From Halobacteriales archaeon (lineage in GTDB: Archaea; Halobacteriota; Halobacteria; Halobacteriales; Hikarchaeaceae), in assembly GCA_022450005.1 (NCBI GenBank), contig JAKURE010000004.1, positions 1 through 50,637 of the forward strand: DNA of 50,637 nt. Reading direction: 5' to 3'. The notes beneath the pieces were generated by a model that saw only the letters and a program-made list of their open reading frames with translations, was not told the origin of the DNA and did not search any database. This document shows positions 1 to 12,998 of the stretch, piece after piece. Every line of letters starts with the position of its first letter. Within the stretch, counting starts at the first letter, position 1. The position numbers were made by a program, and so were the translations under genes.

Positions 1-253
1 CAAACACCGCTAGTTCATGAGCTCGCATTTGAAATTCCCCCTTTCAGTTATTCAAATCAGCCCTCAAAAATCGGGTCCCTGTTCTCCCTCTGATCACCAA
101 TGGATTTGCCCCTATCTCTGCACAAATTTCACATAACGCAGTTACTAAATCATCTGCAATGGGGTTCGCATCGATGACAACATTATCTCCCCTTTCTATG
201 GAAGTTGAATGCATCGAAATAATTTTTGCATGTTCCCTAATTCGCTGATCCAT
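1..253 (-). pseudogene. Aminopeptidase (M29/AmpS-like), N-terminal part, with in-frame TGA at 44-46; runs off the window edge
   Basis: MDQRIREHAKII...GDNVVIDANPIADDLV resembles the N-terminus of haloarchaeal M29 aminopeptidases. After TGA the same frame continues KGEFQMRAHELAVF, still family-like. Could be an edge sequencing error rather than a real pseudogene. Confidence 0.55.
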
Positions 254-443
254 GCCCCTTCTTTTACAGGCCATAGTATACGAATTTCGATGTGATTTGT
301 TATTTTCCCCGACTAGATTCAAATCCATCTTTGAATCCCACCACTGCCTTCCTAAGAATCAAATAAAACATAAAAAGGACCAACACAAATCCTCCTATCA
401 CCAAAAAAACAATCACTTCCATATTATACAAATTTCATCTCCA

Positions 444-1655
444 TCAAAACCGTTTCATAGCAAGGAATGCAATGGCCCCAGCCACACTAAATATGGCCAT
501 AGCTGGATATGCTATTGTAATGTCTGTACGTTCCAATATTAAACCAAACACAAATGGTCCGACAGAATTTCCTAGCGCAGACCCCGTCAAAGTTAAAGCG
601 AATAACATACCTGAGAAATCTCTTTTTGCATACACCGACGTTAGTGCATTCATCACCGGAACTGTGGTCCACATCATGGCACCTATCAGGAAAAATAACC
701 CCAACAGAAGTATCTTATTGGGCGGAATTATTCCTGTCAACAAAAGTAAAAATCCTGTCACTACAAAAGTCAATGCACCAAGATTTCTTTTATCAAACAT
801 ATCTGCCAAAGGACCTATCACAATCGTAGATACACCTGCTCCAACAAGCATAACAAAAAACACAGTATTTGCAAAACTAACCACTTCCGAACTTCTCAAA
901 AACACATAAGATGTAGTAAACGTTCTCGCAGCACCGATTTCTACACCCAATAAAAAATTAACGGTCACCAAACCAACTACCCATGGATCCCACGGAAAAT
1001 TCTTTAGCTGAGTCCTTATGTTTTCCCCCCTTGTTACAATTTTTTTCTCTAAATTCCCCACAACGTTATCTGGCTCAGCAAATTTTCTATGGAAAACCAC
1101 GGCGTATACTACCCCAACAATTGCGATTAGGGACAGAGAAAAACGCCAAGAATCAGTCATTAGAATAATTCCACCTATCACTGCTGGAGCCAATGCAGTC
1201 CCGATGGCCCCACCCAATCCATGAAATCCCATGGCCTTTCCTGCGGTATTATCTGCTTCCAAATCCGAAACTGCAGACAAACCCGCAGGATGATAGGTGC
1301 TCCCTCCTATCCCCGCTACAACTTGTGATAACAATAACGCCTGATATGTATCTGCTCTACTTGCAAGAAATACCCCAAATGCCAGCAGAACCAACCCAAA
1401 TCCAAGCACATATCTTTTTCCAATTTTATCCGCTATAATTCCCGCTGGCAATTGGAATATAGCATACACCACATAAAACACAGTCACCAACCAACCTGCC
1501 TGGGCATACGAAATATCAAAATCAATGACAATAAGGGGTATAATTGGTGGTAATGCAACACAATAGAATTCATGTAACGCGTGCGCAATAGCAATAAGTC
1601 CCATTTGCTTGGGATGCGATAAACGGTAGATATTTTTCCATTCAATCGCTCTCAT
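444..1655 (-). CDS. MFS transporter
   Basis: 403 aa, about 12 hydrophobic segments, motif A-like GIIADKIGKR and GPLADMFDKR. Confidence 0.9.
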   Translation of the reverse strand: MRAIEWKNIYRLSHPKQMGLIAIAHALHEFYCVALPPIIPLIVIDFDISYAQAGWLVTVFYVVYAIFQLPAGIIADKIGKRYVLGFGLVLLAFGVFLASRADTYQALLLSQVVAGIGGSTYHPAGLSAVSDLEADNTAGKAMGFHGLGGAIGTALAPAVIGGIILMTDSWRFSLSLIAIVGVVYAVVFHRKFAEPDNVVGNLEKKIVTRGENIRTQLKNFPWDPWVVGLVTVNFLLGVEIGAARTFTTSYVFLRSSEVVSFANTVFFVMLVGAGVSTIVIGPLADMFDKRNLGALTFVVTGFLLLLTGIIPPNKILLLGLFFLIGAMMWTTVPVMNALTSVYAKRDFSGMLFALTLTGSALGNSVGPFVFGLILERTDITIAYPAMAIFSVAGAIAFLAMKRF

Positions 1656-1744
1656 GCACTCTTAGGGGTAGTTTTCACTCTTGTCTTTTGCGATGTCAAA
1701 ATTTTTGTCCTTCCCCTTCAAAACACACGAGATATGAGTCGAAT

Positions 1745-2245
1745 TTACTTATTCTTATCAAGCATAACTTGATTTTTTTTCTTTCTTTTATCCCCATCCC
1801 AAAATTCTAGTGTCTTAGCAGTCCACCAAGTTGGACCTGAAAAATCACTAAAATCAATATTTTTTACACCACTCCCCCTAGCTATAGTTATATGTGGAAT
1901 GTAATTTTCTCCTTCTACCCCTTTGACACAACCAAAAACACTAACAAGAGTTTCATGAATTAATTTCATGCCTATGCTTTTTACTTCTATATATAACACC
2001 GGTGAAGTCCCTCTATCTGCCACCTCAAACATTTCCAAATTTCCAATTTCAACAGTAAATGGTTCTACATTTTCTAATAAAAATTTTATTTCTGATTCTA
2101 TATGCCCATCCAAATCTTCCTTTTCAAAACGTTTGATAACCAGAGTCGGCTCCTCCACAATCTCTTCCCACCCCCCCGACACGGGCGCTATTTCTTCAAT
2201 CGCCCTAACTATCCCTTGTGGAATTGAGACATTTAAACTCCACAC
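1745..2245 (-). CDS. 2'-5' RNA ligase family (2H phosphoesterase) protein
   Basis: C-terminal YIPHITIARG HxT motif and haloarchaeal-type N-terminus (WSLNV..P); the first HxT motif reads PTL. Confidence 0.75.
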   Translation of the reverse strand: MWSLNVSIPQGIVRAIEEIAPVSGGWEEIVEEPTLVIKRFEKEDLDGHIESEIKFLLENVEPFTVEIGNLEMFEVADRGTSPVLYIEVKSIGMKLIHETLVSVFGCVKGVEGENYIPHITIARGSGVKNIDFSDFSGPTWWTAKTLEFWDGDKRKKKNQVMLDKNK

Positions 2246-2261
2246 AACTATCTTCTCCTAT

Positions 2262-2717
2262 TCATACAATCTCATATATGAGAATCCCTGTGACAATTAT
2301 CCCATATATGATGTTCACCACCATAAATTTAATACGAGATTGAATGACTAGTTTGCCCTCCCATACCCAATCCATTTTCATTCCCAATACAATCTCCATC
2401 CCAATTTTATCACCTATTATCCCCACTATCAACCCAACTAAAACTCCCCACACGAGGACATTCACAATAGTCATCGAGATTATTGGGAGTATTGTCGCTA
2501 CAATTCCCCCCATTAAAGATCCATAAATTATACTTAGTAATATCCCTTGATTCAGATATTCATCTGCCTCCCCCGTGCCTATGTATTTAGATACGAATAT
2601 CGACGCAGGTAGGATACTTTTATTTCCTACTCTTTTATCCATCACAGAAACTATTAACAATGTAATCGCACTCGCACCTACGATCCCCGCTATCATTCCT
2701 CCTACAACTGTTGACAT
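2262..2717 (-). CDS. Hypothetical membrane protein (start uncertain; ORF open to 2813)
   Basis: About 4 hydrophobic Gly-rich helices from MSTVVGG; resembles haloarchaeal conserved membrane proteins. Confidence 0.6.
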   Translation of the reverse strand: MSTVVGGMIAGIVGASAITLLIVSVMDKRVGNKSILPASIFVSKYIGTGEADEYLNQGILLSIIYGSLMGGIVATILPIISMTIVNVLVWGVLVGLIVGIIGDKIGMEIVLGMKMDWVWEGKLVIQSRIKFMVVNIIYGIIVTGILIYEIV

Positions 2718-2821
2718 ATAGCTGATCCTTTTTTTTCTACCCTTTTCTAAGTTTTTATTAATATTTCCACACTCGTTACTCTCTTTATCCAAACCCATGT
2801 CTGCCCGTTCCAAACATCATA

Positions 2822-2830
2822 TATTATAAG
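2822..2830 (+). promoter_or_regulatory. TATA box of argG (leaderless-type spacing)
   Basis: TTATAA at 2824-2829, about 25-29 nt before ATG 2853. Confidence 0.5.
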
Positions 2831-2852
2831 CCGTCACTCCAATATACTGATC

Positions 2853-4061
2853 ATGAACCGTGTGGCACTTGCATTCTCTGGTGGTCTCGATACAACCGTT
2901 TGTGTTTCAATTCTTAAAGAAGAATATGGATATGAAGATGTTATTGGAGTTTCAGTCAATGTAGGTCAACCTAAAAACGAATTCGAACAAGCAAAAGAAA
3001 CGGCAAAAGAGATATCTCTAGATTTAAAGATACTCGATGCTAGAACTGATTTTGCCAATTTATGCCTCGATTCTGTTAGAGCAAATGCAAGCTATCAAGG
3101 ATACCCCTTGGGAACTGCACTCGCCCGGCCTATCATAGCAAAAGCCATCCTAGAAGAGGCGAAAAAGACCAAATGCAATGCACTCGCACATGGGTGCACT
3201 GGCAAAGGAAACGACCAATTACGATTCGAAGCCATTTGGCGTGGATCCGGCCTTGAAATAGCAGCCCCTATACGCGATCTGGGGCTAACCAGAACTTGGG
3301 AAATACAATACGCAAAAGAAAATAATTTACCTATCAAATCCGGAAATGATGGGATTTGGAGCATCGATACAAATCTTTGGTCTAGATCAATTGAAGGGGG
3401 TGAACTTGAAGATCCCAGTACTATCCCTCCAAGTTCTATTTATGAGTGGACTCAATCTCCTTCTTCTGAATCTAAATTAGTAACCATAGAATTCGACGAA
3501 GGATATCCTGTCGCAGTGGACGGAACTAACTATTCTCCTGTAGAATTAATCGACCATCTAAACACACTATGTGGCCCTTTCGGAGTCGGAAGAACTGATG
3601 TAATGGAAGATAGGATACTGGGACTCAAAGTCCGAGAAAATTACGAACATCCTGCTGCAACTGCCCTTCTCAACGCACATTCCGCATTAGAAGATCTAGT
3701 ACTTACTAAGGAAGAGCGAAAGTTCAAAATCTCAGTCGATGATGCATGGGCAGAACAAGCATACTTGGGACTAATTTATTCACCTTTTATGGAAGCATTG
3801 AATGGCTTCATTTCTACTACTCAAAAACGAGTAACAGGATCTGTGACGTTAGACCTTCAAGGTGGCCACGCAAGAGCAGTTTCTCGAGAAAGTCCCTACG
3901 CAGTTCATTCTGCATCAGCAGCTTCTTTCAATACCCCTGGAGTCATAGATGACATAACACAATCAGATGCCATAGGGGTCGCAAAATACCACGGCCTCCA
4001 AGAAAGAATGTCTTCAGCACTCTTCGACTCTGAAATCCCTACAACACAAAACAAAAAATGA
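2853..4061 (+). CDS. argG: Argininosuccinate synthase
   Basis: LAFSGGLDT, AHGCTGKGNDQLRFE, SIDTNLWSRSIEG motifs. Confidence 0.97.
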   Translation: MNRVALAFSGGLDTTVCVSILKEEYGYEDVIGVSVNVGQPKNEFEQAKETAKEISLDLKILDARTDFANLCLDSVRANASYQGYPLGTALARPIIAKAILEEAKKTKCNALAHGCTGKGNDQLRFEAIWRGSGLEIAAPIRDLGLTRTWEIQYAKENNLPIKSGNDGIWSIDTNLWSRSIEGGELEDPSTIPPSSIYEWTQSPSSESKLVTIEFDEGYPVAVDGTNYSPVELIDHLNTLCGPFGVGRTDVMEDRILGLKVRENYEHPAATALLNAHSALEDLVLTKEERKFKISVDDAWAEQAYLGLIYSPFMEALNGFISTTQKRVTGSVTLDLQGGHARAVSRESPYAVHSASAASFNTPGVIDDITQSDAIGVAKYHGLQERMSSALFDSEIPTTQNKK

Positions 4062-4072
4062 AAAATAACTCC
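4030..4072 (+). repeat. Left direct repeat (attL-like) overlapping the argG stop and the captured ATG
   Basis: CTGAAATCCCTACAACACAAAACAAAAAATGAAAAATAACTCC matches 5375-5416; identical 14-nt core CACAAAACAAAAAA. Confidence 0.75.
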
Positions 4073-4615
4073 GACCCAACCCCATTTGGAAAGGAAGTTG
4101 AGAAGTTAGAGAACTTCACAGAACTAATACAACGTGGAGCGCGCATGGGGATTTCGTTGTCCATTTTATATATATTAGTTCGGGTAATAGCTGAACGGGA
4201 AATTGATTGGTTAGTTGCAGATATCGTGGTGGTGTTTGCATTCTCTCTGATCTGTCTCATGATGTTTTTAGGGGCATATGTGGGCCATGCACTGGATATG
4301 TTTGAAGATCCACCACAAACAACTAAGCAGATGTTCAAATCACTGGATATCCCTCCCAAAAGTAGCAAAGGGTGGTGGTTTTTGGGAGGTGCAGTTGTGA
4401 CCATTGTGATGGTGACTGTGGTGACTCTGTACTTCCTTGACAGATATTACTGGATGGGTTATCAATGGCAGATAGCACCATTGGTGGGTTTGGCGGTCGT
4501 AATGCTAGAGATGATGCTCATAGGCGCGGGGGGCAGTAATGCTGAATTTGTACTGAAAACTATCCAAGCATCAGGGGTAGTTGGCAGGGGTAATAGACGG
4601 GTAGAAAGAAGGTAG
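4058..4615 (+). CDS. Hypothetical 4-TM membrane protein (element cargo) starting at the apparent ancestral argH ATG
   Basis: 185-aa ORF with 4 hydrophobic segments; ATGA overlap with the argG stop; begins MKNNSD, compare KNDSSD at the ArgH N-terminus. Confidence 0.65.
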   Translation: MKNNSDPTPFGKEVEKLENFTELIQRGARMGISLSILYILVRVIAEREIDWLVADIVVVFAFSLICLMMFLGAYVGHALDMFEDPPQTTKQMFKSLDIPPKSSKGWWFLGGAVVTIVMVTVVTLYFLDRYYWMGYQWQIAPLVGLAVVMLEMMLIGAGGSNAEFVLKTIQASGVVGRGNRRVERR

Positions 4616-4721
4616 GAAATCCACGTCAATAATACGGTTCAGTGTGACATTATATACTGACCAGAGCCTCCCATTATACATGACAGCCGATTATGTCAAA
4701 GTGGAGCTGGGAGAATCTAAT

Positions 4722-4763
4722 ATTTTACAAACTATGAAAGGCATTTTACAAACTATGGAAGGA
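4722..4763 (+). repeat. Tandem 21-bp direct repeat (2 copies)
   Basis: ATTTTACAAACTATGAAAGGC (4722-4742) and ATTTTACAAACTATGGAAGGA (4743-4763). Confidence 0.85.
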
Positions 4764-4796
4764 CCATTTGAGGACATTTTGCCCAATTTCCCATCT

Positions 4797-4812
4797 AAAA
4801 AGAGCTTTATAG
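4797..4812 (+). promoter_or_regulatory. BRE/TATA promoter of the integrase-argH fusion (leaderless spacing)
   Basis: Purine-rich AAAAAGAG followed by TTTATAG (4806-4812), about 23-29 nt before ATG 4835. Confidence 0.55.
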
Positions 4813-4834
4813 TTCGTAAAACATAACTTTTACA

Positions 4835-6844
4835 ATGGTTAGGAAAGTTGAGTTCCCAAAGAAAAAAGGCAAATTTGCCTGCTGGCTAAGCCGTGAGGAA
4901 GTAAAACACCTCATCGAACAATGTACAGAATCAAGAGACGAAGAAATAATTCTCACCCTTTTAGCCTCTGGTTTGAGAGTTCACGAAGCCTGTAAAGCTT
5001 CCTCGGAGGATATTTTTGAAGACGGTCGAGGTCTAATGATAAAAATTTGGGGTAAAAATTCCCAATACAGGGAAGCCCCCATTCCGGCCACCCTGAAAAC
5101 GGCCGACCTACCAATCACACGTAAATACAACGGAATCCACAGGCCCATTTCAACCAACACAGCTTTAGCATGGGTAAAAAAAGCAGGGAAAAACTTGGGA
5201 TGCCCAGAACTCTCACCACATGATTTACGTCGTTCCTACGCCTCGATCCTGCTTGAATCCAATATCGACCCGACCGTTATAATGGAATGGCTGGGCTGGA
5301 GTAGCTGGGAGACATTTCAACGATTCAATATGAACGTGGCAAATCCAGATTTTCAAAAACACGAACGAGAAAAACTGAATTTCCTACCCACAAAACAAAA
5401 AACAAAAAATGACTCCTCCGATATAATACGTGGAACCCGTTTCAGCGGAGGGCCTGCTAGAAACTTCCTCTCTTCAATGGATGTAGATCACCAAATCTTC
5501 GATGCAGATATCGCAGTAGATTTGGCACACGTAGTAATGTTAGCAGAAGAAAATATAATCTCCAAAGACAACGCCAAAGGCATACTAGAAGCTCTTTTTT
5601 CCATTCACGAAATGGGATTTGAAAGCTTACCTCCTGCTGAGGATGTCCACGCAGCAATTGAAACAGCGGTAGTAACTAAAGTTGGAGATTCTGGTGGGAG
5701 AATGCATACTGCTAGGAGTAGGAACGACGAAGTTTCAACATGCATTCGTTATCAATTGCGAAGTGACATTTTGTCTCTACTAAATTCGGTTTTATCTTTG
5801 CGAGAAACTATCCTTTCCATCGCCAAGAGCCACACCTCTACTCTAATCCCTGGGTTCACTCATCTACAAAGTGCACAACCATCAACCCTTTCTCATTGGC
5901 TCGTATCCTACTATGGATCTCTCGAACGGGACACTAACCGATTATTTGATGCTTATAGTCGCATCAATCTATCCCCTCTCGGATCTGCAGCCTTTGCAGG
6001 AACTCCCTTCCCCATCAACCGTGAACGAACCGCAACCCTCCTTGGATTTGAAGGTATAATAGAAAACACAATGGACGCCGTTTCTTCTAGAGATTTTTTA
6101 CTAGAATCTGCGGCAGCTCTGTGCTCTCTTTCTATTACATTCTCAAATATGTCTGAAGATTTAATTTTTTACTCAAATAAGAGCTTTGTTGAGATAGACG
6201 ATGATTACGCGTCTACTTCTTCTATCATGCCTCAAAAGAAAAATCCAGACACACTAGAATTAATACGAGCGGCTGCAGCAACAACCCTTGCCACCTTTTC
6301 CGGTACTTTTACAACTTTAAAAGGCCTCCCCCGTGCTTACAATAGAGACCTTCAATCAGCGACCCCTTATATTTGGAACTCCGTCGAAAAAATGATCGAT
6401 TCCGCAGAAATTCTCTCCAAAATAATAGAAACTTCAACCTGGAATGTCGAACTTCTTTCTAGTTCTGCAGGAGAGGGATTCTCCACCGCAACTGGCGTTG
6501 CCGATACCCTAGCTATGGCCGGAATACCCTTCCGAAAAGCGCACCAAATCATAGCAAAATCAGAAAGTAATTATGAAGATATTTCTTCAAATTTCAACGA
6601 AATAATGGGATCCCCACTCAGTGAATTTTGTACCCAGGATTCAATAGAATCTGCTTTAGATCCCCTCAAAAACGTCGATATGAGGGATTCATTAGGGGGC
6701 CCTTCGCCCACCATTGTTTTAAATTCAATTTCCAATGCTAAAAACAACCTAAAATCAGATTTTTCCCTCCACACGGCGCATAAAGAAAAAATAGACCAAT
6801 CAAAAGAAAAATTGATTCAAGAAGCTATGAGTTACTTGAAATAA
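4835..6844 (+). CDS. argH: Fusion ORF: SNJ2-like tyrosine integrase (aa 1-184) plus argininosuccinate lyase (aa ~190-669)
   Basis: N-part has SGLRVHE, WGK, SPHDLRRSYA, WLGW; C-part has RFSGGP, HTARSRND, GFTHLQSAQP, STSSIMPQKKNPD; no stop between them. Confidence 0.92.
   Translation: MVRKVEFPKKKGKFACWLSREEVKHLIEQCTESRDEEIILTLLASGLRVHEACKASSEDIFEDGRGLMIKIWGKNSQYREAPIPATLKTADLPITRKYNGIHRPISTNTALAWVKKAGKNLGCPELSPHDLRRSYASILLESNIDPTVIMEWLGWSSWETFQRFNMNVANPDFQKHEREKLNFLPTKQKTKNDSSDIIRGTRFSGGPARNFLSSMDVDHQIFDADIAVDLAHVVMLAEENIISKDNAKGILEALFSIHEMGFESLPPAEDVHAAIETAVVTKVGDSGGRMHTARSRNDEVSTCIRYQLRSDILSLLNSVLSLRETILSIAKSHTSTLIPGFTHLQSAQPSTLSHWLVSYYGSLERDTNRLFDAYSRINLSPLGSAAFAGTPFPINRERTATLLGFEGIIENTMDAVSSRDFLLESAAALCSLSITFSNMSEDLIFYSNKSFVEIDDDYASTSSIMPQKKNPDTLELIRAAAATTLATFSGTFTTLKGLPRAYNRDLQSATPYIWNSVEKMIDSAEILSKIIETSTWNVELLSSSAGEGFSTATGVADTLAMAGIPFRKAHQIIAKSESNYEDISSNFNEIMGSPLSEFCTQDSIESALDPLKNVDMRDSLGGPSPTIVLNSISNAKNNLKSDFSLHTAHKEKIDQSKEKLIQEAMSYLK
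5375..5416 (+). repeat. Right direct repeat (attR-like) at the integrase/ArgH junction
   Basis: CTGAATTTCCTACCCACAAAACAAAAAACAAAAAATGACTCC; ACA at 5402-5404 aligns with ATG at 4058-4060. Confidence 0.75.
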
Positions 6845-6871
6845 CTTCTCACAGTACCCAATAATCAAATT

Positions 6872-6885
6872 AGGAAATTTTAAAC
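6872..6885 (+). promoter_or_regulatory. BRE/TATA promoter of lysW/argW
   Basis: AGGAAA followed by TTTTAAAC (6878-6885), about 25-32 nt before ATG 6910. Confidence 0.5.
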
Positions 6886-6909
6886 CGAAGTCTTGTTTAT
6901 TCTCCTACT

Positions 6910-7080
6910 ATGACAAGCACAACTTGTGTGGAATGTGGCTCAGAACTCACAATATCAGACGACGTAGAATCTGGAGAAATTTTGGATTGTGATACTTGTG
7001 GAATCGAACTAGAGGTAATTGGCGTGGGCCCCGTGGAACTCTCCAAAGCACCCGAGCTCGAAGAAGATTGGGGAGAATAA
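6910..7080 (+). CDS. lysW: Amino-group carrier protein LysW/ArgW (56 aa, absent from the ORF track)
   Basis: MTSTTCVECG...CDTCG...APELEEDWGE: two CxxC pairs and the diagnostic C-terminal EDWGE. Confidence 0.97.
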   Translation: MTSTTCVECGSELTISDDVESGEILDCDTCGIELEVIGVGPVELSKAPELEEDWGE

Positions 7081-7135
7081 CAGTTTTAGGTATATAGGAA
7101 CACTTATTAATCGAGTAATCCTAAGTGATCCTCTC

Positions 7136-8002
7136 ATGAATGTCGGGTTTTTATATTCCCAAATTAGGGCGGACGAGAAGTTACTTCTAACCGAATTGAG
7201 GTCTAGAGGCCACGACATACTCAAAATAGATGTCCGAAAACATCAATTTTCTATACAAGGTCCTTCCTCTGAATTCAAAGATTTAGATGTTGTAATCGAT
7301 AGATGTATAGCACAAAGCCAAAGTAAATTTGCTTCTCTCTTTTTTGCTTCATATGGCATTCCTATCATCAACGATCCTATGGTCGTCGAACGGTGTTCTG
7401 ATAAAGTTAAAACCAGTCTTTTACTAGCGAATGCGGGAATACCCACTCCCGAAACAACGATAGCATTTTCTCCGGAAAGTGCTCTCGAAACAATCGAAAC
7501 CATGGGATATCCTTGTGTAATAAAACCAATTGTGGGGTCCTGGGGGCGCCTAATGGCAAAAATAGACACCAGAGCTGCCGCAGAGGCAATTATAGAACAC
7601 AAAGCAACACTTGGGCACTATGAACACAAAATTTTCTATATACAGAAATTTATCAATAAACCCAACCGGGATATCCGTGTAGTTGCAGTCGATGGGAATG
7701 CCATCGCCGCAATGACTAGAACTTCAACACATTGGCTAACAAACGCTGCAAAAGGAGCCACAGTCGATGCATATAATATACCCAAAGAAGTAGCGTCACT
7801 CGTCGAAAAAGCTTCGAAAGTCGTTGGAGGAGGCTTACTCGGGGTCGATCTTATGGAACTCGACGATGGAGGATTTACTGTGCACGAAATTAACCCTGGA
7901 ACTGAATTCAAAGCACTCAATGAATGTGTGGATGTAGATGTTCCTTCTCATATAATTAATTGGATAGAATCCGTTACTAACAAAAAAGGTGAAACCCAAT
8001 GA
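7136..8002 (+). CDS. argX: Glutamate--LysW ligase (RimK/LysX ATP-grasp family)
   Basis: Likely start MNVGFLYS; KPIVGSWGRLMAKI, WLTNAAKG, GVDLME, HEIN motifs; follows lysW within an arg cluster. Confidence 0.92.
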   Translation: MNVGFLYSQIRADEKLLLTELRSRGHDILKIDVRKHQFSIQGPSSEFKDLDVVIDRCIAQSQSKFASLFFASYGIPIINDPMVVERCSDKVKTSLLLANAGIPTPETTIAFSPESALETIETMGYPCVIKPIVGSWGRLMAKIDTRAAAEAIIEHKATLGHYEHKIFYIQKFINKPNRDIRVVAVDGNAIAAMTRTSTHWLTNAAKGATVDAYNIPKEVASLVEKASKVVGGGLLGVDLMELDDGGFTVHEINPGTEFKALNECVDVDVPSHIINWIESVTNKKGETQ

Positions 8003-9039
8003 CATTTTCAGCCTCTGTAATTGGGGCAAGTGGTTTCACCGGAGGAGAGTTGCTAAGGCTACTAACCGACCATCCCCAATTCGAAATAAAGCAAGCTACC
8101 AGTCGTAAATATTCTGGCCGTTCTATCGGATACACACACCCAAACCTTCGAGATTTGAAATTAAAATATTCTTCCCCTGAAGAACTAGAATCTGTCGACG
8201 TACTCTTTGCGGCAACTCCTCATGGGGTTTCTATGAGTAGGATCGATGATTTTTCTGAAGCTTCTGATATTGTGGTGGATCTAAGTGCAGACTTTAGACT
8301 CAAAGATCCTCAGAAATATGATCAATATTACGATGGCCATTCTCGCCCAGAATTACTTGAAAAAGCCGTCTATGGACTCCCCGAGATCCACCGAGAACAT
8401 TTACGATCCGCAAAACTAATTGCTTGTGGTGGGTGCAACTCTACAGTCACCCTTCTTGGCCTGTATCCTTTGTTCAAAACAGGAATACTAACCCCAAAAG
8501 ACACTATCGTAGCAGATATAAAAGTTGGTTCCTCCGAAGGGGGAGCTAGTGGGAGTACCTCCTCTCACCATGCAATCCGATCTGGTATCGTTCGTCCTTA
8601 CGCTCCAACTGGCCATAGACACGAAGCAGAAATAGAACAAGAACTAGGCTCAAACGTAGCCTTCACAGTTCATGCAGTCGATATGATTAGGGGGGCATCT
8701 GCAACATGCCACAGTTTCCCAACAAAACAGAACTTAGACAAACCAATGATTTGGCAAGCATATAGGAATTCTTACGAAAATGAACCATTTGTCAATTTAT
8801 TGAGTGGCGCTGGGGGAAACTATCGCTACCCCGAACCAAAGGTAGTTGCTGGAACCAACAATGTGGAAATAGCATTTGAAATCGATGAAAGGAACAACAG
8901 AATCGTAGTCTTTTCTGTGATTGATAATATGATGAAAGGATCTGCAGGACAAGCTATTCACGCTACCAATATAGCGCTCGGTCTCGACGAAACCTTGGGG
9001 CTTTCATATAGAAGTTTACACCCCACTGGGTCACCCTAA
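7999..9039 (+). CDS. argC: [LysW]-glutamyl-phosphate reductase (ArgC/LysY)
   Basis: GASGFTGGELLRLL, DLSADFRL, DNMMKGSAGQA. Confidence 0.95.
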   Translation: MTFSASVIGASGFTGGELLRLLTDHPQFEIKQATSRKYSGRSIGYTHPNLRDLKLKYSSPEELESVDVLFAATPHGVSMSRIDDFSEASDIVVDLSADFRLKDPQKYDQYYDGHSRPELLEKAVYGLPEIHREHLRSAKLIACGGCNSTVTLLGLYPLFKTGILTPKDTIVADIKVGSSEGGASGSTSSHHAIRSGIVRPYAPTGHRHEAEIEQELGSNVAFTVHAVDMIRGASATCHSFPTKQNLDKPMIWQAYRNSYENEPFVNLLSGAGGNYRYPEPKVVAGTNNVEIAFEIDERNNRIVVFSVIDNMMKGSAGQAIHATNIALGLDETLGLSYRSLHPTGSP

Positions 9040-9062
9040 TTTAACAGCATTATAACTTAATT

Positions 9063-9884
9063 ATGACTATTGTATTGAAAATTGGAGGGGCGAAAGCAGT
9101 TGATCCAGCAGGGGCTCTAGATGACATTGCCCACTTATCTTCTCAGGGAAATTCACTCATCATAGTCCATGGGGGGTCAACCGCAATAGATGAAAATCTA
9201 GAGCGAATGGGACTATCTCCAAATTATGTAGAAACACCCGCAGGTGTTATAGGGCGTTTCACCGACGAAGCCACAATGAAGGTATTCACCATGACCATGG
9301 CGGGGTCACTCAATACGAATCTCGTAGTAAAATTACAAAATTTAAATATCAATGCCGTGGGCCTTTCTGGCGTCGATGGGCGTTTACTATATGGACCTAG
9401 AAAAGATTCTATCCGTGCCATCGAAAATGGAAAGAAAAAAATCCTCAGGGGAGACCATTCTGGTAAGATCACTTCTGTCAACACAGACCTGATACAACTT
9501 TTACTTGACAATGGCTATGTCCCTGTGATCTCCCCCCCTATGCTGGCCGAAGATGGTATAGCAGTCAATACGGATGCTGATAGGGCCTCATCATCACTTG
9601 CAGGATCCCTATCTGCAACTTTAGTTTCCCTAACAGACGTTTCAGGTATCTACCGCGATATATCCGATCCTACTACTCTCATCCCTTCTGCACAAACACC
9701 GGAACAATATTCCCTTCTTCAAAACGCGGCAGAAGGATTTATGACACGCAAGTTAATGGCTGCTACAGATGCACTCCAACAAGGAGCAGAAAAAGCCATA
9801 ATAGCTAGTGCAAACGAAGAACATCCTCTCCTTTCTGCACTCGATGGTGGTGGAACTCATATCTACCCTGAGGCGATATTGTGA
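9063..9884 (+). CDS. argB: [LysW]-glutamate kinase (ArgB/LysZ)
   Basis: VLKIGG, VHGGS, NTDADRA. Confidence 0.95.
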   Translation: MTIVLKIGGAKAVDPAGALDDIAHLSSQGNSLIIVHGGSTAIDENLERMGLSPNYVETPAGVIGRFTDEATMKVFTMTMAGSLNTNLVVKLQNLNINAVGLSGVDGRLLYGPRKDSIRAIENGKKKILRGDHSGKITSVNTDLIQLLLDNGYVPVISPPMLAEDGIAVNTDADRASSSLAGSLSATLVSLTDVSGIYRDISDPTTLIPSAQTPEQYSLLQNAAEGFMTRKLMAATDALQQGAEKAIIASANEEHPLLSALDGGGTHIYPEAIL

Positions 9885-11017
9885 ATAATTTTATTTTTTC
9901 TAGGAAAAATATCCAAATAACTCATGGAAATGGGGTTCACCTCTATGACACTGATGGCACCGAATATTTAGATTTAGGAGCTAGTTATGCATGCGTTCCT
10001 GCAGGACATAACCATCCACATGTACTCTCCGAAATACAAAACCAACTAGAAAAAATAACCTACATACAAGGGTCCTATCCAATTTCCATACGTGATGATT
10101 TCTATAATAAATTAGTTGAAATATCTCCTGGGGACATAAAAAATATTTGGCTCTCCAATTCAGGAACCGAAGCCAATGAGGCAGCCATAAAATTCGCCCG
10201 TCATGCAACTCAAAGGTCTCAAATTATATCAACTAAACAAGCTTTTCATGGCAGAACTATGGGTTCTCTTTCTGCCACTTGGAAACCAACTTACAAGAAA
10301 GGATTTGGACCACTTATCTCCGACATCAATTTCGTTAACTTTGGAGACGTCGAATCTTTGACAGATTGTATATCTGAAAACACAGCTGCTGTTATAGTTG
10401 AACCCATACAAGGGGAAGGAGGAGTAAATCTCCCTCCTTCTAACTACCTACAAGAAGTTAGGAAAATCACTGAAGAAGTCGGCGCAGTCATGATACTCGA
10501 TGAAATCCAAACCGGTCTTGGAAGGACTGGTTCATTTTGGAATTGTAATCATACCAATGTAGTCCCGGACATACTTACTTCTGCAAAAGGACTAGCAAAT
10601 GGATTGCCCATTGGAGTAACCTTATGTAAAGATTGGATTGCAGAGAATCCTGGGAATCATGGAAGCACTTTTAGCGGAGGACCCGTTGTTTGCGCCGCAG
10701 GCAACGCTACTATAGATGTCATTTTGAATGAAAATCTACCTGAAAACGCATCTAAAATTGGTTCCTATCTACTCAAAGAATTAAAAGAAACCATCGGAAC
10801 AAGAACACGTGATATACGTGGTTCTGGTCTGTTAATCGGAATTGAGGTAAAACGTGGATCTGGTTCTATACTCGGGAAACTTGCGAGAGATCATGGAATT
10901 CTGGCATTACCTGCAGGAAAAACAGTCGTCCGTATTTTGCCACCTTTAACCCTCGATCGTTCCCATGCAGACGATTTCATATCTGCAATGGATAGCCTCC
11001 CGGAGGATATATTATGA
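9881..11017 (+). CDS. argD: [LysW]-ornithine aminotransferase (ArgD/LysJ), class III
   Basis: NSGTEANEAAIK, FHGRT, EPIQGEGG, DEIQTGLGRTG, AKGLANG. Confidence 0.95.
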   Translation: MNNFIFSRKNIQITHGNGVHLYDTDGTEYLDLGASYACVPAGHNHPHVLSEIQNQLEKITYIQGSYPISIRDDFYNKLVEISPGDIKNIWLSNSGTEANEAAIKFARHATQRSQIISTKQAFHGRTMGSLSATWKPTYKKGFGPLISDINFVNFGDVESLTDCISENTAAVIVEPIQGEGGVNLPPSNYLQEVRKITEEVGAVMILDEIQTGLGRTGSFWNCNHTNVVPDILTSAKGLANGLPIGVTLCKDWIAENPGNHGSTFSGGPVVCAAGNATIDVILNENLPENASKIGSYLLKELKETIGTRTRDIRGSGLLIGIEVKRGSGSILGKLARDHGILALPAGKTVVRILPPLTLDRSHADDFISAMDSLPEDIL

Positions 11018-12084
11018 GTTCCAAATGGAGCAAAAAAGAAGCAAAATCTTTACTCTTCGATTTGGTATCTACCCCCTCTTATTCGGGAAAAGAAGCACAA
11101 TGTGCAGAAAAACTAATGAATTTTTTCCAAACTCACCAACGGGAGGCATGGATAGACGAAGCTGGAAATGTGCATTCTCCCTCAAATGATGCAGTTCTTC
11201 TAACTTCTCACATGGACACTGTGCCTGGAGATATTCCCGTTAAACTAGATGGAGATGTGCTTTGGGGCCGGGGTTCTGTGGATGCAAAAGGACCACTCGC
11301 TTCCATGGCCATTTCTGCAATTTCCACTGGAGTAAGTTTTGTAGGAGTTGTAAGTGAAGAACACAATTCATATGGGGCAAGACATTTAGTCAAAACCAGA
11401 GAATCCATTCCTGACAATGTGATCAACGGAGAGCCTAGTGGATGGGATGGTATTGCTCTTGGTTATAGGGGTCTACTCAACGGAACATACGTAGCAACAA
11501 GCAGATCTGGACACACCTCCCGTCCTGAAAAAAATGCCCTCCAAGATGCAATAGATTGGTGGTCCACTGTCGAGGCACGTTTCACAGCAGACGATTGGCC
11601 ATCTGAAATTTCACAAACACATCTTGAAAATTCTATTTTCGAACAGGTTACCCCAAAACCGATTACAATCACTGGTGGTATTAGCGAAGATGGACTTTCT
11701 GTAGAAGTCACTTTCGACGTCCAATTCCGCGTCCCACCAAATTTATCCGTAGATGAGGTCCGTGAAATAGCCGACAACGAATTGACCACCGGAACCGTCC
11801 GCTGGAAAGATATGGTCAATCCAGTTATGATGAGCGCTAGGACCCCCCCTGCAAGAGCATTCCGCGCGGCAATACGAACTTTTGGAGGAGTTCCTAGGCA
11901 ATTACGAAAAACCGGAACTAGTGATATGAATATTTACTCCGAATCCTGGGATGTCCCTATGGTTACATATGGACCTGGTGATTCTTCACTTGACCATGCT
12001 CCAGACGAACGAATTTCGATATCAGAATTCTATCTCAGCATAGATGTTCTCAACAACGTTTGCAAAAGACTATCAAAATTATGA
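11014..12084 (+). CDS. argE: [LysW]-ornithine hydrolase (ArgE/LysK, M20 family)
   Basis: SHMDTVPG, GRGSVDAKG, EE, GTSDMN, YGPGDSSLDH. Confidence 0.93.
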   Translation: MSSKWSKKEAKSLLFDLVSTPSYSGKEAQCAEKLMNFFQTHQREAWIDEAGNVHSPSNDAVLLTSHMDTVPGDIPVKLDGDVLWGRGSVDAKGPLASMAISAISTGVSFVGVVSEEHNSYGARHLVKTRESIPDNVINGEPSGWDGIALGYRGLLNGTYVATSRSGHTSRPEKNALQDAIDWWSTVEARFTADDWPSEISQTHLENSIFEQVTPKPITITGGISEDGLSVEVTFDVQFRVPPNLSVDEVREIADNELTTGTVRWKDMVNPVMMSARTPPARAFRAAIRTFGGVPRQLRKTGTSDMNIYSESWDVPMVTYGPGDSSLDHAPDERISISEFYLSIDVLNNVCKRLSKL

Positions 12085-12998
12085 CCCACTTACTAGATAT
12101 AGATGATTTAACTAAAACGGATATTGATTCTATTTTAAAACTCGCAACAGAATTAAAACAGTCCCAAATTGATGGAAACGTTCCATCTTTACTCCATGGG
12201 AAAACGCTATCTATGCTATTCGAAAAACCTAGTACTCGCACACGTGTTTCATTTGAGGTTGGGATGAATATGCTCGGGGGAGATGCAATAACATTTGATT
12301 TATCCCAATTACAATTAAGTAGAGGGGAAACACTTTCCGATACTACAAAATCTCTTTCACTTTATGTAGATGCAATCTTGGCAAGAGTCACTGATCATTC
12401 CCTGTTAGAACAATTATCGTTAACATCTACAATTCCCATTATTAATGGTTTATCGGATAAATCTCACCCCTGCCAAGCCCTAGCAGATTTATTAACTATT
12501 TATGAAAATTTTGGAAACTTTGATGTCCAAGCAGCTTGGGTTGGAGATGGTAATAATGTCGCAAATTCTTTCGCCAGGGCATGTTCCATTATGGGAATAG
12601 ATCTAGTCATGGCCACTCCTAAAGGGTATGAACTTTCACCCGAAACTTTATCGAAAATAGAATCTTCCGGAATTTCTTTTTCTGCAACACATGACCCCCG
12701 AAAAGCGGTTTCAGAAGCCGATGTGGTATATACCGATACCTGGGTTAGTATGGGAGACGAATCTACAAGAGACAAACGTTTATCCGACTTCGATGGTTTC
12801 CAAATAAATTCTAAATTATTAGACAAAACCGAAGCTTTGGTTATGCATTGTTTACCTGCACACAGGGACGAAGAAATTTCTACAGATATCCTTGATGGGA
12901 ATAGATCTTTGGTCTGGACCCAAGCAGAAAATAGACTCCACGCACAAAATGGACTGTTAGTTCATATCCTCAACCCCACCCAAGACATCCCCGAATAA
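12081..12998 (+). CDS. argF: Ornithine carbamoyltransferase
   Basis: FEKPSTRT, HPCQALAD, MHCLPAHR; start MTHLLDID overlaps the argE stop. Confidence 0.97.
   Translation: MTHLLDIDDLTKTDIDSILKLATELKQSQIDGNVPSLLHGKTLSMLFEKPSTRTRVSFEVGMNMLGGDAITFDLSQLQLSRGETLSDTTKSLSLYVDAILARVTDHSLLEQLSLTSTIPIINGLSDKSHPCQALADLLTIYENFGNFDVQAAWVGDGNNVANSFARACSIMGIDLVMATPKGYELSPETLSKIESSGISFSATHDPRKAVSEADVVYTDTWVSMGDESTRDKRLSDFDGFQINSKLLDKTEALVMHCLPAHRDEEISTDILDGNRSLVWTQAENRLHAQNGLLVHILNPTQDIPE

Follow-up and report, generated by a model that had tools for sequence, protein, structure and literature searches.

Why does the argininosuccinate lyase (ArgH) of an uncultivated marine archaeon begin with a tyrosine integrase? 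The question is raised by a stretch of 50,637 nucleotides (nt) from a Halobacteriales archaeon of the Hikarchaeaceae (assembly GCA_022450005.1, contig JAKURE010000004.1, forward strand), in which one reading frame encodes both proteins. We refer to the whole of this stretch as the window and number positions from its first letter. Our reading, which we consider probable, is that the joint between the two proteins is the right attachment site (attR) of a small element that is fixed in a subclade of one genus of Marine Group IV (Hikarchaeia), and that the immobilised integrase (Int, encoded by int) has been kept by selection and is made as an Int-ArgH polypeptide.

A single reading frame for integrase and ArgH

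The fused frame is made up of the following parts.

4835..5386, + strand: integrase domain, catalytic domain only (amino acids (aa) 1-184; Pfam, NCBIfam, AlphaFold2 (AF2) and fold matches)
5387..5431, + strand: linker rich in Lys, Gln and Thr, encoded by the attachment (att) core (aa 185-199; poorly constrained)
5402..6844, + strand: ArgH part of the fused frame (aa 190-669; TIGR00838)

The open reading frame (ORF) listing of the window contains a single ORF without interruption at 4835-6844 (+), with an ATG start and a length of 669 aa, as a first-pass annotation made from the sequence had reported. That annotation had described an integrase fused in frame to a complete ArgH, and the profile searches agree. 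Phage_integrase (PF00589) matches aa 17-165 with an E-value of 5.5e-18 (65.8 bits, cut-off 27.1; profile positions 2-166 of 172), Lyase_1 matches aa 235-482 (3.8e-52) and ASL_C2 matches aa 549-613. The NCBIfam argH model TIGR00838 matches aa 208-639 along its positions 14-454 of 455, with 458.6 bits where the cut-off is 279.5. The motifs quoted earlier (CWLSREEV, GLR..E, HDLRR, WLGW, EREKLNFL, RFSGGP and SSIMPQKKNPD) are all present in the translation, and from codon 190 onwards the ArgH part is collinear with the ArgH N-termini, MT(N/S)(N/D)S..., of congeners in which the site is empty.

The archaeal XerA model NF040815 gives 73 bits against a cut-off of 220 and is matched through its C-terminal part alone (model positions 82-252 of 263), so the integrase part is limited to the catalytic domain and has no core-binding domain. 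AF2 models this domain with a predicted local distance difference test (pLDDT) score of 92.5 and the linker as coil with a pLDDT of about 70; the top Foldseek matches to the integrase model are XerA and XerH (E-value 5.6e-08). No second ArgH was found in the window's own genome, which is 71% complete, and the fused ORF is its only ArgH.

Recurrence of the fusion in relatives

In relatives and metagenomes, 8/8 copies have a frame that is open across the junction. Among 41 related genomes, it was recovered in four other species representatives of the genus, three of them complete (G001, G003 and G004, with 674 aa open) and one truncated by a contig end (G005); the congeners G002, G006 and G007 had no match in this search. 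The window's own genome holds one copy. In genome and metagenome collections, the fused type turned up in four records of metagenome-assembled genomes (MAGs), which appear identical to G003, G001, G004 and G005, and in four metagenome contigs (L037-L039 and L044). The records are labelled Halobacteriales archaeon or Marine Group IV archaeon. Among the proteins of 367-1171 aa in a collection of 5.8 billion, the sole match to the int part was a protein of 669 aa (P0006) entitled 'MAG: argininosuccinate lyase [Halobacteriales archaeon]'. Public records name the protein only 'argininosuccinate lyase', and the fusion is therefore invisible to annotation-based surveys. We found no variant in which a stop separates the two parts, and 0/5 short protein matches are of the fused type.

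Two checks proposed in the first-pass annotation bear on this point: the same fusion is present in related MAGs (G001, G003, G004 and G005), and sequence data across the junction match the window, with no stop, frameshift or chimera in the run contigs. Contigs of public runs from different studies agree with the window across 4765-5479, and in run X13 one 715-nt contig covers this interval with a single differing letter, away from the junction. An artefact, be it a chimeric contig, faulty binning or a homopolymer error, is in our view so improbable as to be negligible. The junction is A-rich, and one contig (L039) has lost 1 nt from a homopolymer elsewhere, in argH; against this stand the same frame in eight assemblies from different records, the agreement of the run contigs and the nature of the change at codons 190-191 described below, which consists of three substitutions without an insertion or deletion (indel). 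The loss in L039 lies at argH codon ~519, where a run of six A is reduced to five and the frame is shifted; it is either an assembly error or a broken allele.

The junction as an attachment site

The two copies of the direct repeat that bound the insert are located as follows.

4030..4072, no strand: attL, left direct-repeat copy (argG tail, argG stop and duplicated argH start codon; local alignment against attR)
5375..5416, no strand: attR, right direct-repeat copy, the int/argH junction (repeat search and local alignment)

It had been suggested in the first-pass annotation that the integrase stop was lost at the junction. What lies there instead is an att repeat, with the int ORF crossing a duplicated core made of the end of argG and the start of argH. 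In standalone int genes, the stop directly follows ...TTCCTTAAT; the homologous ...TTCCTAC of the fused copies leads without a stop into the host core that was duplicated. The repeat finder reports 4045-4072 and 5389-5416 at 89% identity, and the repeats of the window carry several mismatches and one indel. By local alignment, flanking direct repeats of 34-43 nt are present in 7/7 copies examined, with identities of 41/42 in L033, 35/35 in L035, 34/34 in L036 and 39/40 in L039 (34-42 nt, 97-100%), and in G003, G004 and G005 about 40 nt of the int/argH junction recur at the 3' end of argG.

The empty site is seen in G002 and G007, which lack int; there the argG stop overlaps the argH start by 11 nt, and ArgH is 82-83% identical. 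A copy of the argG-end/argH-start core at either end of the insert is what site-specific integration leaves behind when an element brings its target sequence with it. The fused junction is the attR of an insert of 0.75-1.35 kilobases (kb) at the former argG/argH overlap.

The insert occurs in a short form of 0.75 kb (L033, L035, L036 and L039) and a long form of 1.35 kb (the window, L034, L037 and L038). Both contain a conserved region of ~130 nt, with two tandem 20-21-nt repeats and a TTTATA box, followed by int. As to which form arose first, the int tree conflicts with the long/short pattern, and the lineages are mosaic. The proportion of G and C is 0.37-0.48 over positions 1-12000 with no step at the insert (0.44 in int, 0.42 in the window), and composition is uninformative about a foreign origin.

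Some smaller differences among the repeats were also recorded. attL and attR co-vary within genomes, with CCTACCCAC in both copies of L036 and GACCC in both copies of L039, which suggests gene conversion or past recombination between the two repeats. In the attL of L039, the duplicated argH start reads ATA rather than ATG, and in G003 the short-form ORF behind attL has only 12 codons; judging by these copies, the left-hand duplicate of the argH start is evidently dispensable. The argG tail of the window and of L037 (4030-4061) has one extra base relative to the other copies, and the end of ArgG becomes ...EIPTTQNKK; the argG stop then overlaps the ATG of a membrane ORF by 4 nt (ATGA), compared with the 11-nt overlap at empty sites. 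The extra base, at 4043, is absent from run X15.

Loss of the nucleophile

The nucleophile position corresponds to the following codon.

5327..5329, + strand: codon 165 (AAT, Asn) at the position of the nucleophile Tyr (24-sequence alignment and fused copies)

Five standalone proteins of 184-212 aa are 70-79% identical to the integrase part; their last residues, ...DFLN, fall at residue 184/185. Among the 2612 matches of an exhaustive HMMER search, the best ~25 are proteins of 180-230 aa that align to residues ~3-184 and mostly end in ...WL. The 23 aligned homologues end in ...[WF]L or ...FLN, the 18 more distant ones among them mostly in ...WL. The integrase is a member of a family of catalytic-domain-only recombinases of ~190 aa whose natural end lies near residue 184, and the tail that the first-pass annotation had given for such integrases was right.

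Tyr occupies the nucleophile column in 23/24 aligned family members and aligns, in the profile alignment, with the Tyr of Pyrococcus XerA 'qiYtk'. The window has Asn (N165) instead, and F164-N165 occurs in 8/8 fused copies. No Tyr is found beyond residue 135 of the integrase part. The other catalytic residues, R48, E51, K74, H129, R132 and W155, are retained in 8/8 fused copies, and five of them (R48, K74, H129, R132 and W155) fall in columns that are invariant or at least 90% conserved. The domain therefore has the PF00589 homology and the fold of the tyrosine recombinase superfamily and lacks its nucleophile: with Asn165 at the Tyr position in 8/8 fused copies, it is a homologue rather than an active recombinase. 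We predict that it is catalytically dead and unable to recombine DNA. The first-pass annotation did not mention the absence of the catalytic Tyr.

Archaeal XerA gives both the best sequence-profile match (6.7e-20) and the best fold match (PDB 4a8e and 5hxy, template-modelling score 0.70 over the query). Unlike archaeal XerA, the fused integrase lacks the N-terminal core-binding domain as well as the Tyr.

Other assignments were considered and rejected. The first-pass annotation had labelled the integrase as SNJ2-type. SNJ2-type integrases have Gly/Ala at Glu/Asp-I, Ala/Val at His/Trp-III and tRNA-gene targets (PMC5861418), and the family carries Phage_int_SAM, a SAM-like N-terminal domain, according to PMC8371274. 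This label is contradicted by the presence of E51 and W155, by PF00589 as the only domain, with the protein starting 16 aa before it, and by an att site at the argG/argH overlap, in a window that contains no tRNA gene. An SSV-type (suicidal) integrase, with the tetrad R...KxxR...Y (PMC5861418), does not fit either, for int is whole with only its last codons in the att core, and HDLRR is an HxxR motif rather than KxxR. The integron integrase model TIGR02249 gives 25.8 bits against a cut-off of 265.

Selection on the integrase domain

An estimate of the ratio of non-synonymous to synonymous substitution rates (dN/dS) had been proposed for the integrase part, and pairwise Nei-Gojobori counts give 0.029-0.114 over 184 codons (26 pairs with measurable dN and dS; dS up to 0.47), indicative of purifying selection. 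The corresponding range for ArgH is 0.055-0.18, and purifying selection on the integrase domain is as strong as on ArgH. Of the 66 int codons that differ among seven distinct copies, 51 show only synonymous changes, 11 only non-synonymous ones and 4 both kinds. The sole poorly constrained part is the linker (aa 185-199), where 6/15 codons vary, none of them only synonymously, with a dN/dS of 0.2-1.8.

The fused clade is monophyletic (support 100/96) and sister to the standalone protein P0003. Its stem (0.069) is shorter than the P0003 branch (0.13), so there is no sign of relaxation or acceleration on the fused branch. Since N165 is common to all copies, their divergence postdates the loss of the Tyr, and it is the dead protein on which selection acts. 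The suggestion that the element had been domesticated fits in so far as the element is fixed and its int is under purifying selection; the DNA-binding role proposed for the appendage is a candidate only.

Divergence along the locus is mosaic. From -130 to ~+320 of int, the window and L037 have the same sequence, and farther on they show 9-13 differing sites per 150 nt; int dS (0.18-0.47) exceeds argH dS (0.07-0.16), and the int tree disagrees with the argH similarities. Taken together, these patterns indicate homologous recombination among the lineages.

The start of ArgH

5402..5407, + strand: native ArgH start site (ACA AAA in the window; ATG ACA in 7/8 fused copies)

According to the first-pass annotation, ArgH has no in-frame ATG at its normal N-terminus and now depends on the start codon of a mobile element. 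Both statements apply to the strain of the window. There, the ATG at 5409 is in another frame, and the first in-frame Met beyond the junction lies past RFSGG, as had been pointed out; this is M215, and a start at M215 would remove the conserved N-terminal motif. Also in frame, and not mentioned earlier, are M166 and V168 (GTG) inside the integrase part. With the native ATG gone, ArgH of this strain must start at M1, M166 or V168, all of them element-derived codons.

Neither statement can be extended to the clade. ATG ACA stands at codons 190-191 in 7/8 copies, together with ~35 nt of native upstream sequence supplied by the repeat, and a free ArgH may start at the retained ATG190 in most carriers. 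The window's ACA AAA differs from ATG ACA by three substitutions and no indel. L044 is identical to the window over the part that it holds, run X13 has the window's allele, and run X6 has both alleles, with ATG-ACA at a depth of 4.56 of 10.2. L037 has ATG190 though it is nearly identical to the window up to int codon ~107. The loss of ATG190 is a real polymorphism of one lineage.

Promoter region and expression

4722..4762, + strand: two tandem 20-21-nt repeats upstream of int (repeat search; candidate protein-binding sites)
4798..4811, + strand: purine-rich stretch and TTTATA (4806-4811), 24-29 nt before the int ATG; candidate archaeal transcription factor B recognition element (BRE) and TATA box

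Two copies of the tandem repeat are kept in 7/8 fused copies, and one copy in L036. The TTTATA hexamer is identical in 8/8 aligned copies, with one change in the purine-rich stretch in L036. The region upstream of the fused int is homologous to the upstream regions of standalone int genes. By the TATA-to-start spacing rule of haloarchaeal promoters, TTTATA is a candidate promoter from which transcription would start at or next to the int ATG and yield a leaderless int-argH mRNA. Metatranscriptome run X18 contains a 160-nt contig inside int (5030-5189) and another in argG; DNA carry-over is possible, and these contigs are weak hints that int and argG are expressed. A 1364-nt contig of run X15 spans the 3' end of argG, int and the 5' end of argH; X15 is only guessed to be RNA, and we do not count this contig as a transcript.

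Proposed history and alternative explanations

The locus started with an argG stop overlapping the argH start, and an element with a catalytic-domain-only tyrosine integrase of ~190 aa recombined at this overlap. Because the element brought its own argG-end/argH-start core of ~40 bp, both host genes stayed whole; because the core covers the last int codons, the integrated int was left without a stop and in frame into argH. The Tyr was then replaced by N165 before the sampled lineages diverged, with the other active-site residues kept. As selection on the int codons acts through the protein and they are not followed by a stop, we infer an Int-ArgH polypeptide in all carriers, probably translated from a leaderless mRNA under the element's own TATA-type promoter. 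ArgH is a homotetramer, and each of the four subunits of the product would bear a dead integrase domain at its N-terminus, attached by a flexible linker. ArgH with an N-terminal extension is known from other cases, NF002563 matching ArgH at model positions 435-816 of 890. The dead domain would either bind DNA or act in regulation, or else be an N-terminal part that ArgH requires.

A number of points weigh against this account. The carriers are close relatives, with ArgH 97-99% identical, and they recombine with one another, so the eight copies go back to a single event and do not count as independent cases. Every genome is a MAG, with a completeness of 58-78%. Neither a free circular form nor a second integration site turned up for the fused-type int, and attP is for this reason deduced rather than seen. 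With ATG190 in 7/8 copies, ArgH need not depend on int in most carriers. The low dN/dS could mean that the folding of an N-terminal appendage is kept, and not a function of its own. The upstream repeat does not recur elsewhere in the window's own genome at up to three mismatches, which gives no sign of a regulon: its 19-nt core is found only at 4723-4762, with two matches for the reversed control. The evidence from RNA consists of contigs, and the fusion protein is deduced from the sequence.

The explanations differ on what the domain does. It is conceivable, though rather unlikely, that Int-ArgH is a 'trigger enzyme', in which the four dead Int domains of the tetramer bind the 21-nt repeats and att cores at their own promoter and couple arginine status to transcription of argH and lysW-argF; alternatively, the dead domains would sit on the att cores and keep related elements from integrating or excising. 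Unlikely, too, is that the integrase part has no function of its own and is kept because it is physically attached to ArgH and supplies its promoter and start, so that unfolding it or stopping its translation would cost arginine synthesis. The absence of ATG190 from the window's strain, the conserved TATA-like promoter that int brings, the restriction of the repeat motif to this locus in the own genome and the unconstrained linker all suit such passive retention. It accords poorly with an int dN/dS of 0.03-0.11, as low as that of the enzyme itself, and with the retention of all five remaining active-site or DNA-contact residues in 8/8 copies. Where ATG190 is kept (7/8), moreover, a stop after codon 184 would be easy to acquire, AAA and CAA being one step from TAA, and probably harmless, and none is seen. 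The strong form of the first-pass proposal, an obligate bifunctional enzyme throughout the clade with ArgH made only as Int-ArgH from the element's start, we regard as doubtful. The lack of a stop in 8/8 copies, the tolerated loss of ATG190 in one lineage and the N-terminal ArgH fusions represented by NF002563 speak for it, but the retention of ATG190 with its ~35 nt of native upstream context in 7/8 copies would be unexpected if this start were never used.

The remaining two explanations are far weaker. That Int and ArgH are separate products, through a -1 shift on the A-runs of the junction, a stop at the duplicated argG TGA and re-initiation at the argH start as in the ancestral coupling, is very improbable. 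All copies do have this TGA in the -1 frame, directly behind the A-runs; however, it lies inside conserved Asn-Asp codons, so its retention needs no special explanation, the heptamer is not a canonical slippery site, no stable structure follows (z = 0.26; 112/200 shuffles fold at least as well) and the window's strain has no ATG for re-initiation. Mobility of the element to this day, by means of another nucleophile or a Tyr supplied in trans, is if anything harder still to credit. It could account for the co-variation of attL and attR (CCC in both copies of L036, GACCC in both of L039) and for the movement of a host gene body into the insert, described below, but gene conversion between the repeats would also make them co-vary. 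Of the fused copies, 8/8 lack the Tyr, with no other Tyr after residue 135, every fused-type copy sits at the same site, and no second family member was found in the carrier genomes. Among the joints listed in four runs, there is none that restores the empty site, though contigs drop rare variants and this is no evidence of absence; the sole joint found is a short-form replacement (4078 to 4711) in run X15. An immobile attR junction with a selected, inactive Int thus remains the account that we prefer.

Relation to known systems

Phage 21 and e14 in icd are presumably cases of the same kind of replacement-end integration. Archaeal integrative elements that insert in protein-coding genes and carry the replacement end have been described (PMC8371274). 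As in these gene-targeting elements, the insertion here is site-specific within coding sequence, a copy of the target end keeps the host genes intact and the att repeats are direct. Unlike in them, the target is the place where two genes overlap, the core extends over the 3' end of int, which is thereby fused in frame, and the element now consists of little beyond int. In SSV-type 'suicidal' integrases, the att site lies within the int frame, according to PMC7253208 and PMC8371274. The att site is likewise inside the int reading frame here and integration alters the int product; the SSV-type int is split into two inactive halves, whereas here only the last codons and the stop are exchanged, int stays whole, the motif is H-x-x-R and not K-x-x-R, and inactivation is by the change from Tyr to Asn.

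Recombinase folds without recombinase activity are also on record. MrpR/YopR of prophage SPbeta has a recombinase fold without the function and is a repressor that binds a repeated element, according to PMC10516654, and SroF of phi3T (PDB 9rgl) is a fold match to the integrase domain at rank 45. Like MrpR and SroF, the fused domain has kept a tyrosine-recombinase fold after losing the function. Those proteins are free-standing repressors of bacterial phages; here the domain is fused to a biosynthetic enzyme on an archaeal chromosome, and DNA binding is only a candidate role. TnsF of Tn6022 is an inactivated tyrosine-recombinase domain co-opted for site recognition, according to PMC10293859. 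It resembles our case in that an inactivated domain derives from an active relative, and it differs in belonging to a Tn7-like transposon and in having zinc fingers and both recombinase domains, where we see the catalytic domain only at an immobile locus. Finally, fam30-04 of Halobacteria comprises fusions of Phage_integrase, BAT and HTH_10, according to PMC8371274; these too are integrase domains in larger, non-mobile-looking proteins of the same archaeal class, but the partner domains described there are regulatory, and here the partner is a metabolic enzyme.

Our literature search, judged by the titles and abstract starts of the papers listed, found no description of an integrase-ArgH fusion or of an integrase domain joined to any metabolic enzyme, and a phrase search found no paper pairing a tyrosine recombinase with 'lacks the catalytic tyrosine'. 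The main text of two Hikarchaeia genome papers has 0 mentions of integrase, recombinase, arginine or argininosuccinate; their supplements could list the gene. Archaeal integration into protein genes and int genes that contain their own att site (the SSV type) are already known. What sets this case apart is the gene overlap as target, an int that is whole and fused in frame to a host enzyme, the shrinkage of the element to int, and the fact that selection has maintained a dead int across several speciation events. Anatomy and history are ordinary and well explained, and the interest lies in the selected dead domain on a core enzyme.

The locus offers a clean, datable case of a mobile-element gene joining a core biosynthetic gene, with an empty site, an att duplication, active-looking free relatives and a fixed, Tyr-less, selected copy for comparison. 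It suggests that integration at a gene overlap can create a translational fusion of integrase and host enzyme in one step, that such a fusion can outlast speciation, and that in one strain it became the sole way to start ArgH. Should the dead domain bind DNA, it would add an archaeal, enzyme-fused example to the few exapted tyrosine-recombinase folds (MrpR and TnsF). Should the trigger-enzyme idea or its alternative, the blocking of related elements, be true, a metabolic enzyme of an uncultivated marine archaeon would have gained its DNA-binding arm by exaptation of an integrase.

Neighbouring genes and related loci

The fused ORF stands in an arginine cluster in the order argG, fused ORF, lysW, lysX/argX, argC, argB, argD, an argE-like gene and argF.

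2853..4061, + strand: argG (argininosuccinate synthase; NF010392 597 bits against a cut-off of 512), with attL at its 3' end
6910..12998, + strand: remaining arginine cluster, lysW, lysX/argX, argC, argB, argD, argE-like and argF (NCBIfam above cut-off, all except the carrier_LysW domain model)

For lysW, TIGR01206 exceeds its cut-off.

Among relatives of the integrase, a scan of IMG/VR found none on viral contigs, and the best 20 of 166 tblastn matches to phage records include no haloarchaeal virus; they are bacterial phage integrases with a best identity of ~30%. Standalone, Tyr-bearing relatives lie on marine metagenome contigs (L040-L043) of 1.9-6.5 kb with a GC proportion of 0.33-0.43. 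Their neighbours are small orphan ORFs and two convergent multi-pass membrane proteins, and palindromes lie upstream of int. Of the nine ORFs neighbouring int on L040, one has a solid PHROG match, to phrog_6004 (1.3e-13; unknown function); any other matches are weak. None of the four contigs has the terminal overlaps of a circle. Together they are candidates for a small virus or plasmid family of Hikarchaeia-like hosts.

The long-form insert carries one further gene.

4058..4615, + strand: 185-aa membrane ORF, starting on the duplicated argH ATG (long-form insert only)
L049 1450-2022 and G000:C31:3728-3734: native and emptied locus of the membrane gene

Sequence comparison shows the membrane ORF to be a host gene body relocated into the insert. 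Its native locus, between an RNR-like ORF and a TPP-enzyme ORF, is kept in G004 and G002 (190 aa, 83-84% identical) and is precisely emptied in G000, G001 and G003, with 5-12 nt of filler left. In G000 and G001, the gene body (window 4088-4611) is joined to the duplicated argH start codon; G003 is without a copy. The dN/dS of the membrane ORF is ~0.5 on few changes (5 synonymous and 9 non-synonymous differences). At its end, a 13-nt inverted repeat pairs 4611-4623 with 5376-5388 (12/13 complementary); precisely where the relocated segment ends on the right, there is the reverse complement of the att core's left half. This repeat may be a secondary recombination site or a chance match.

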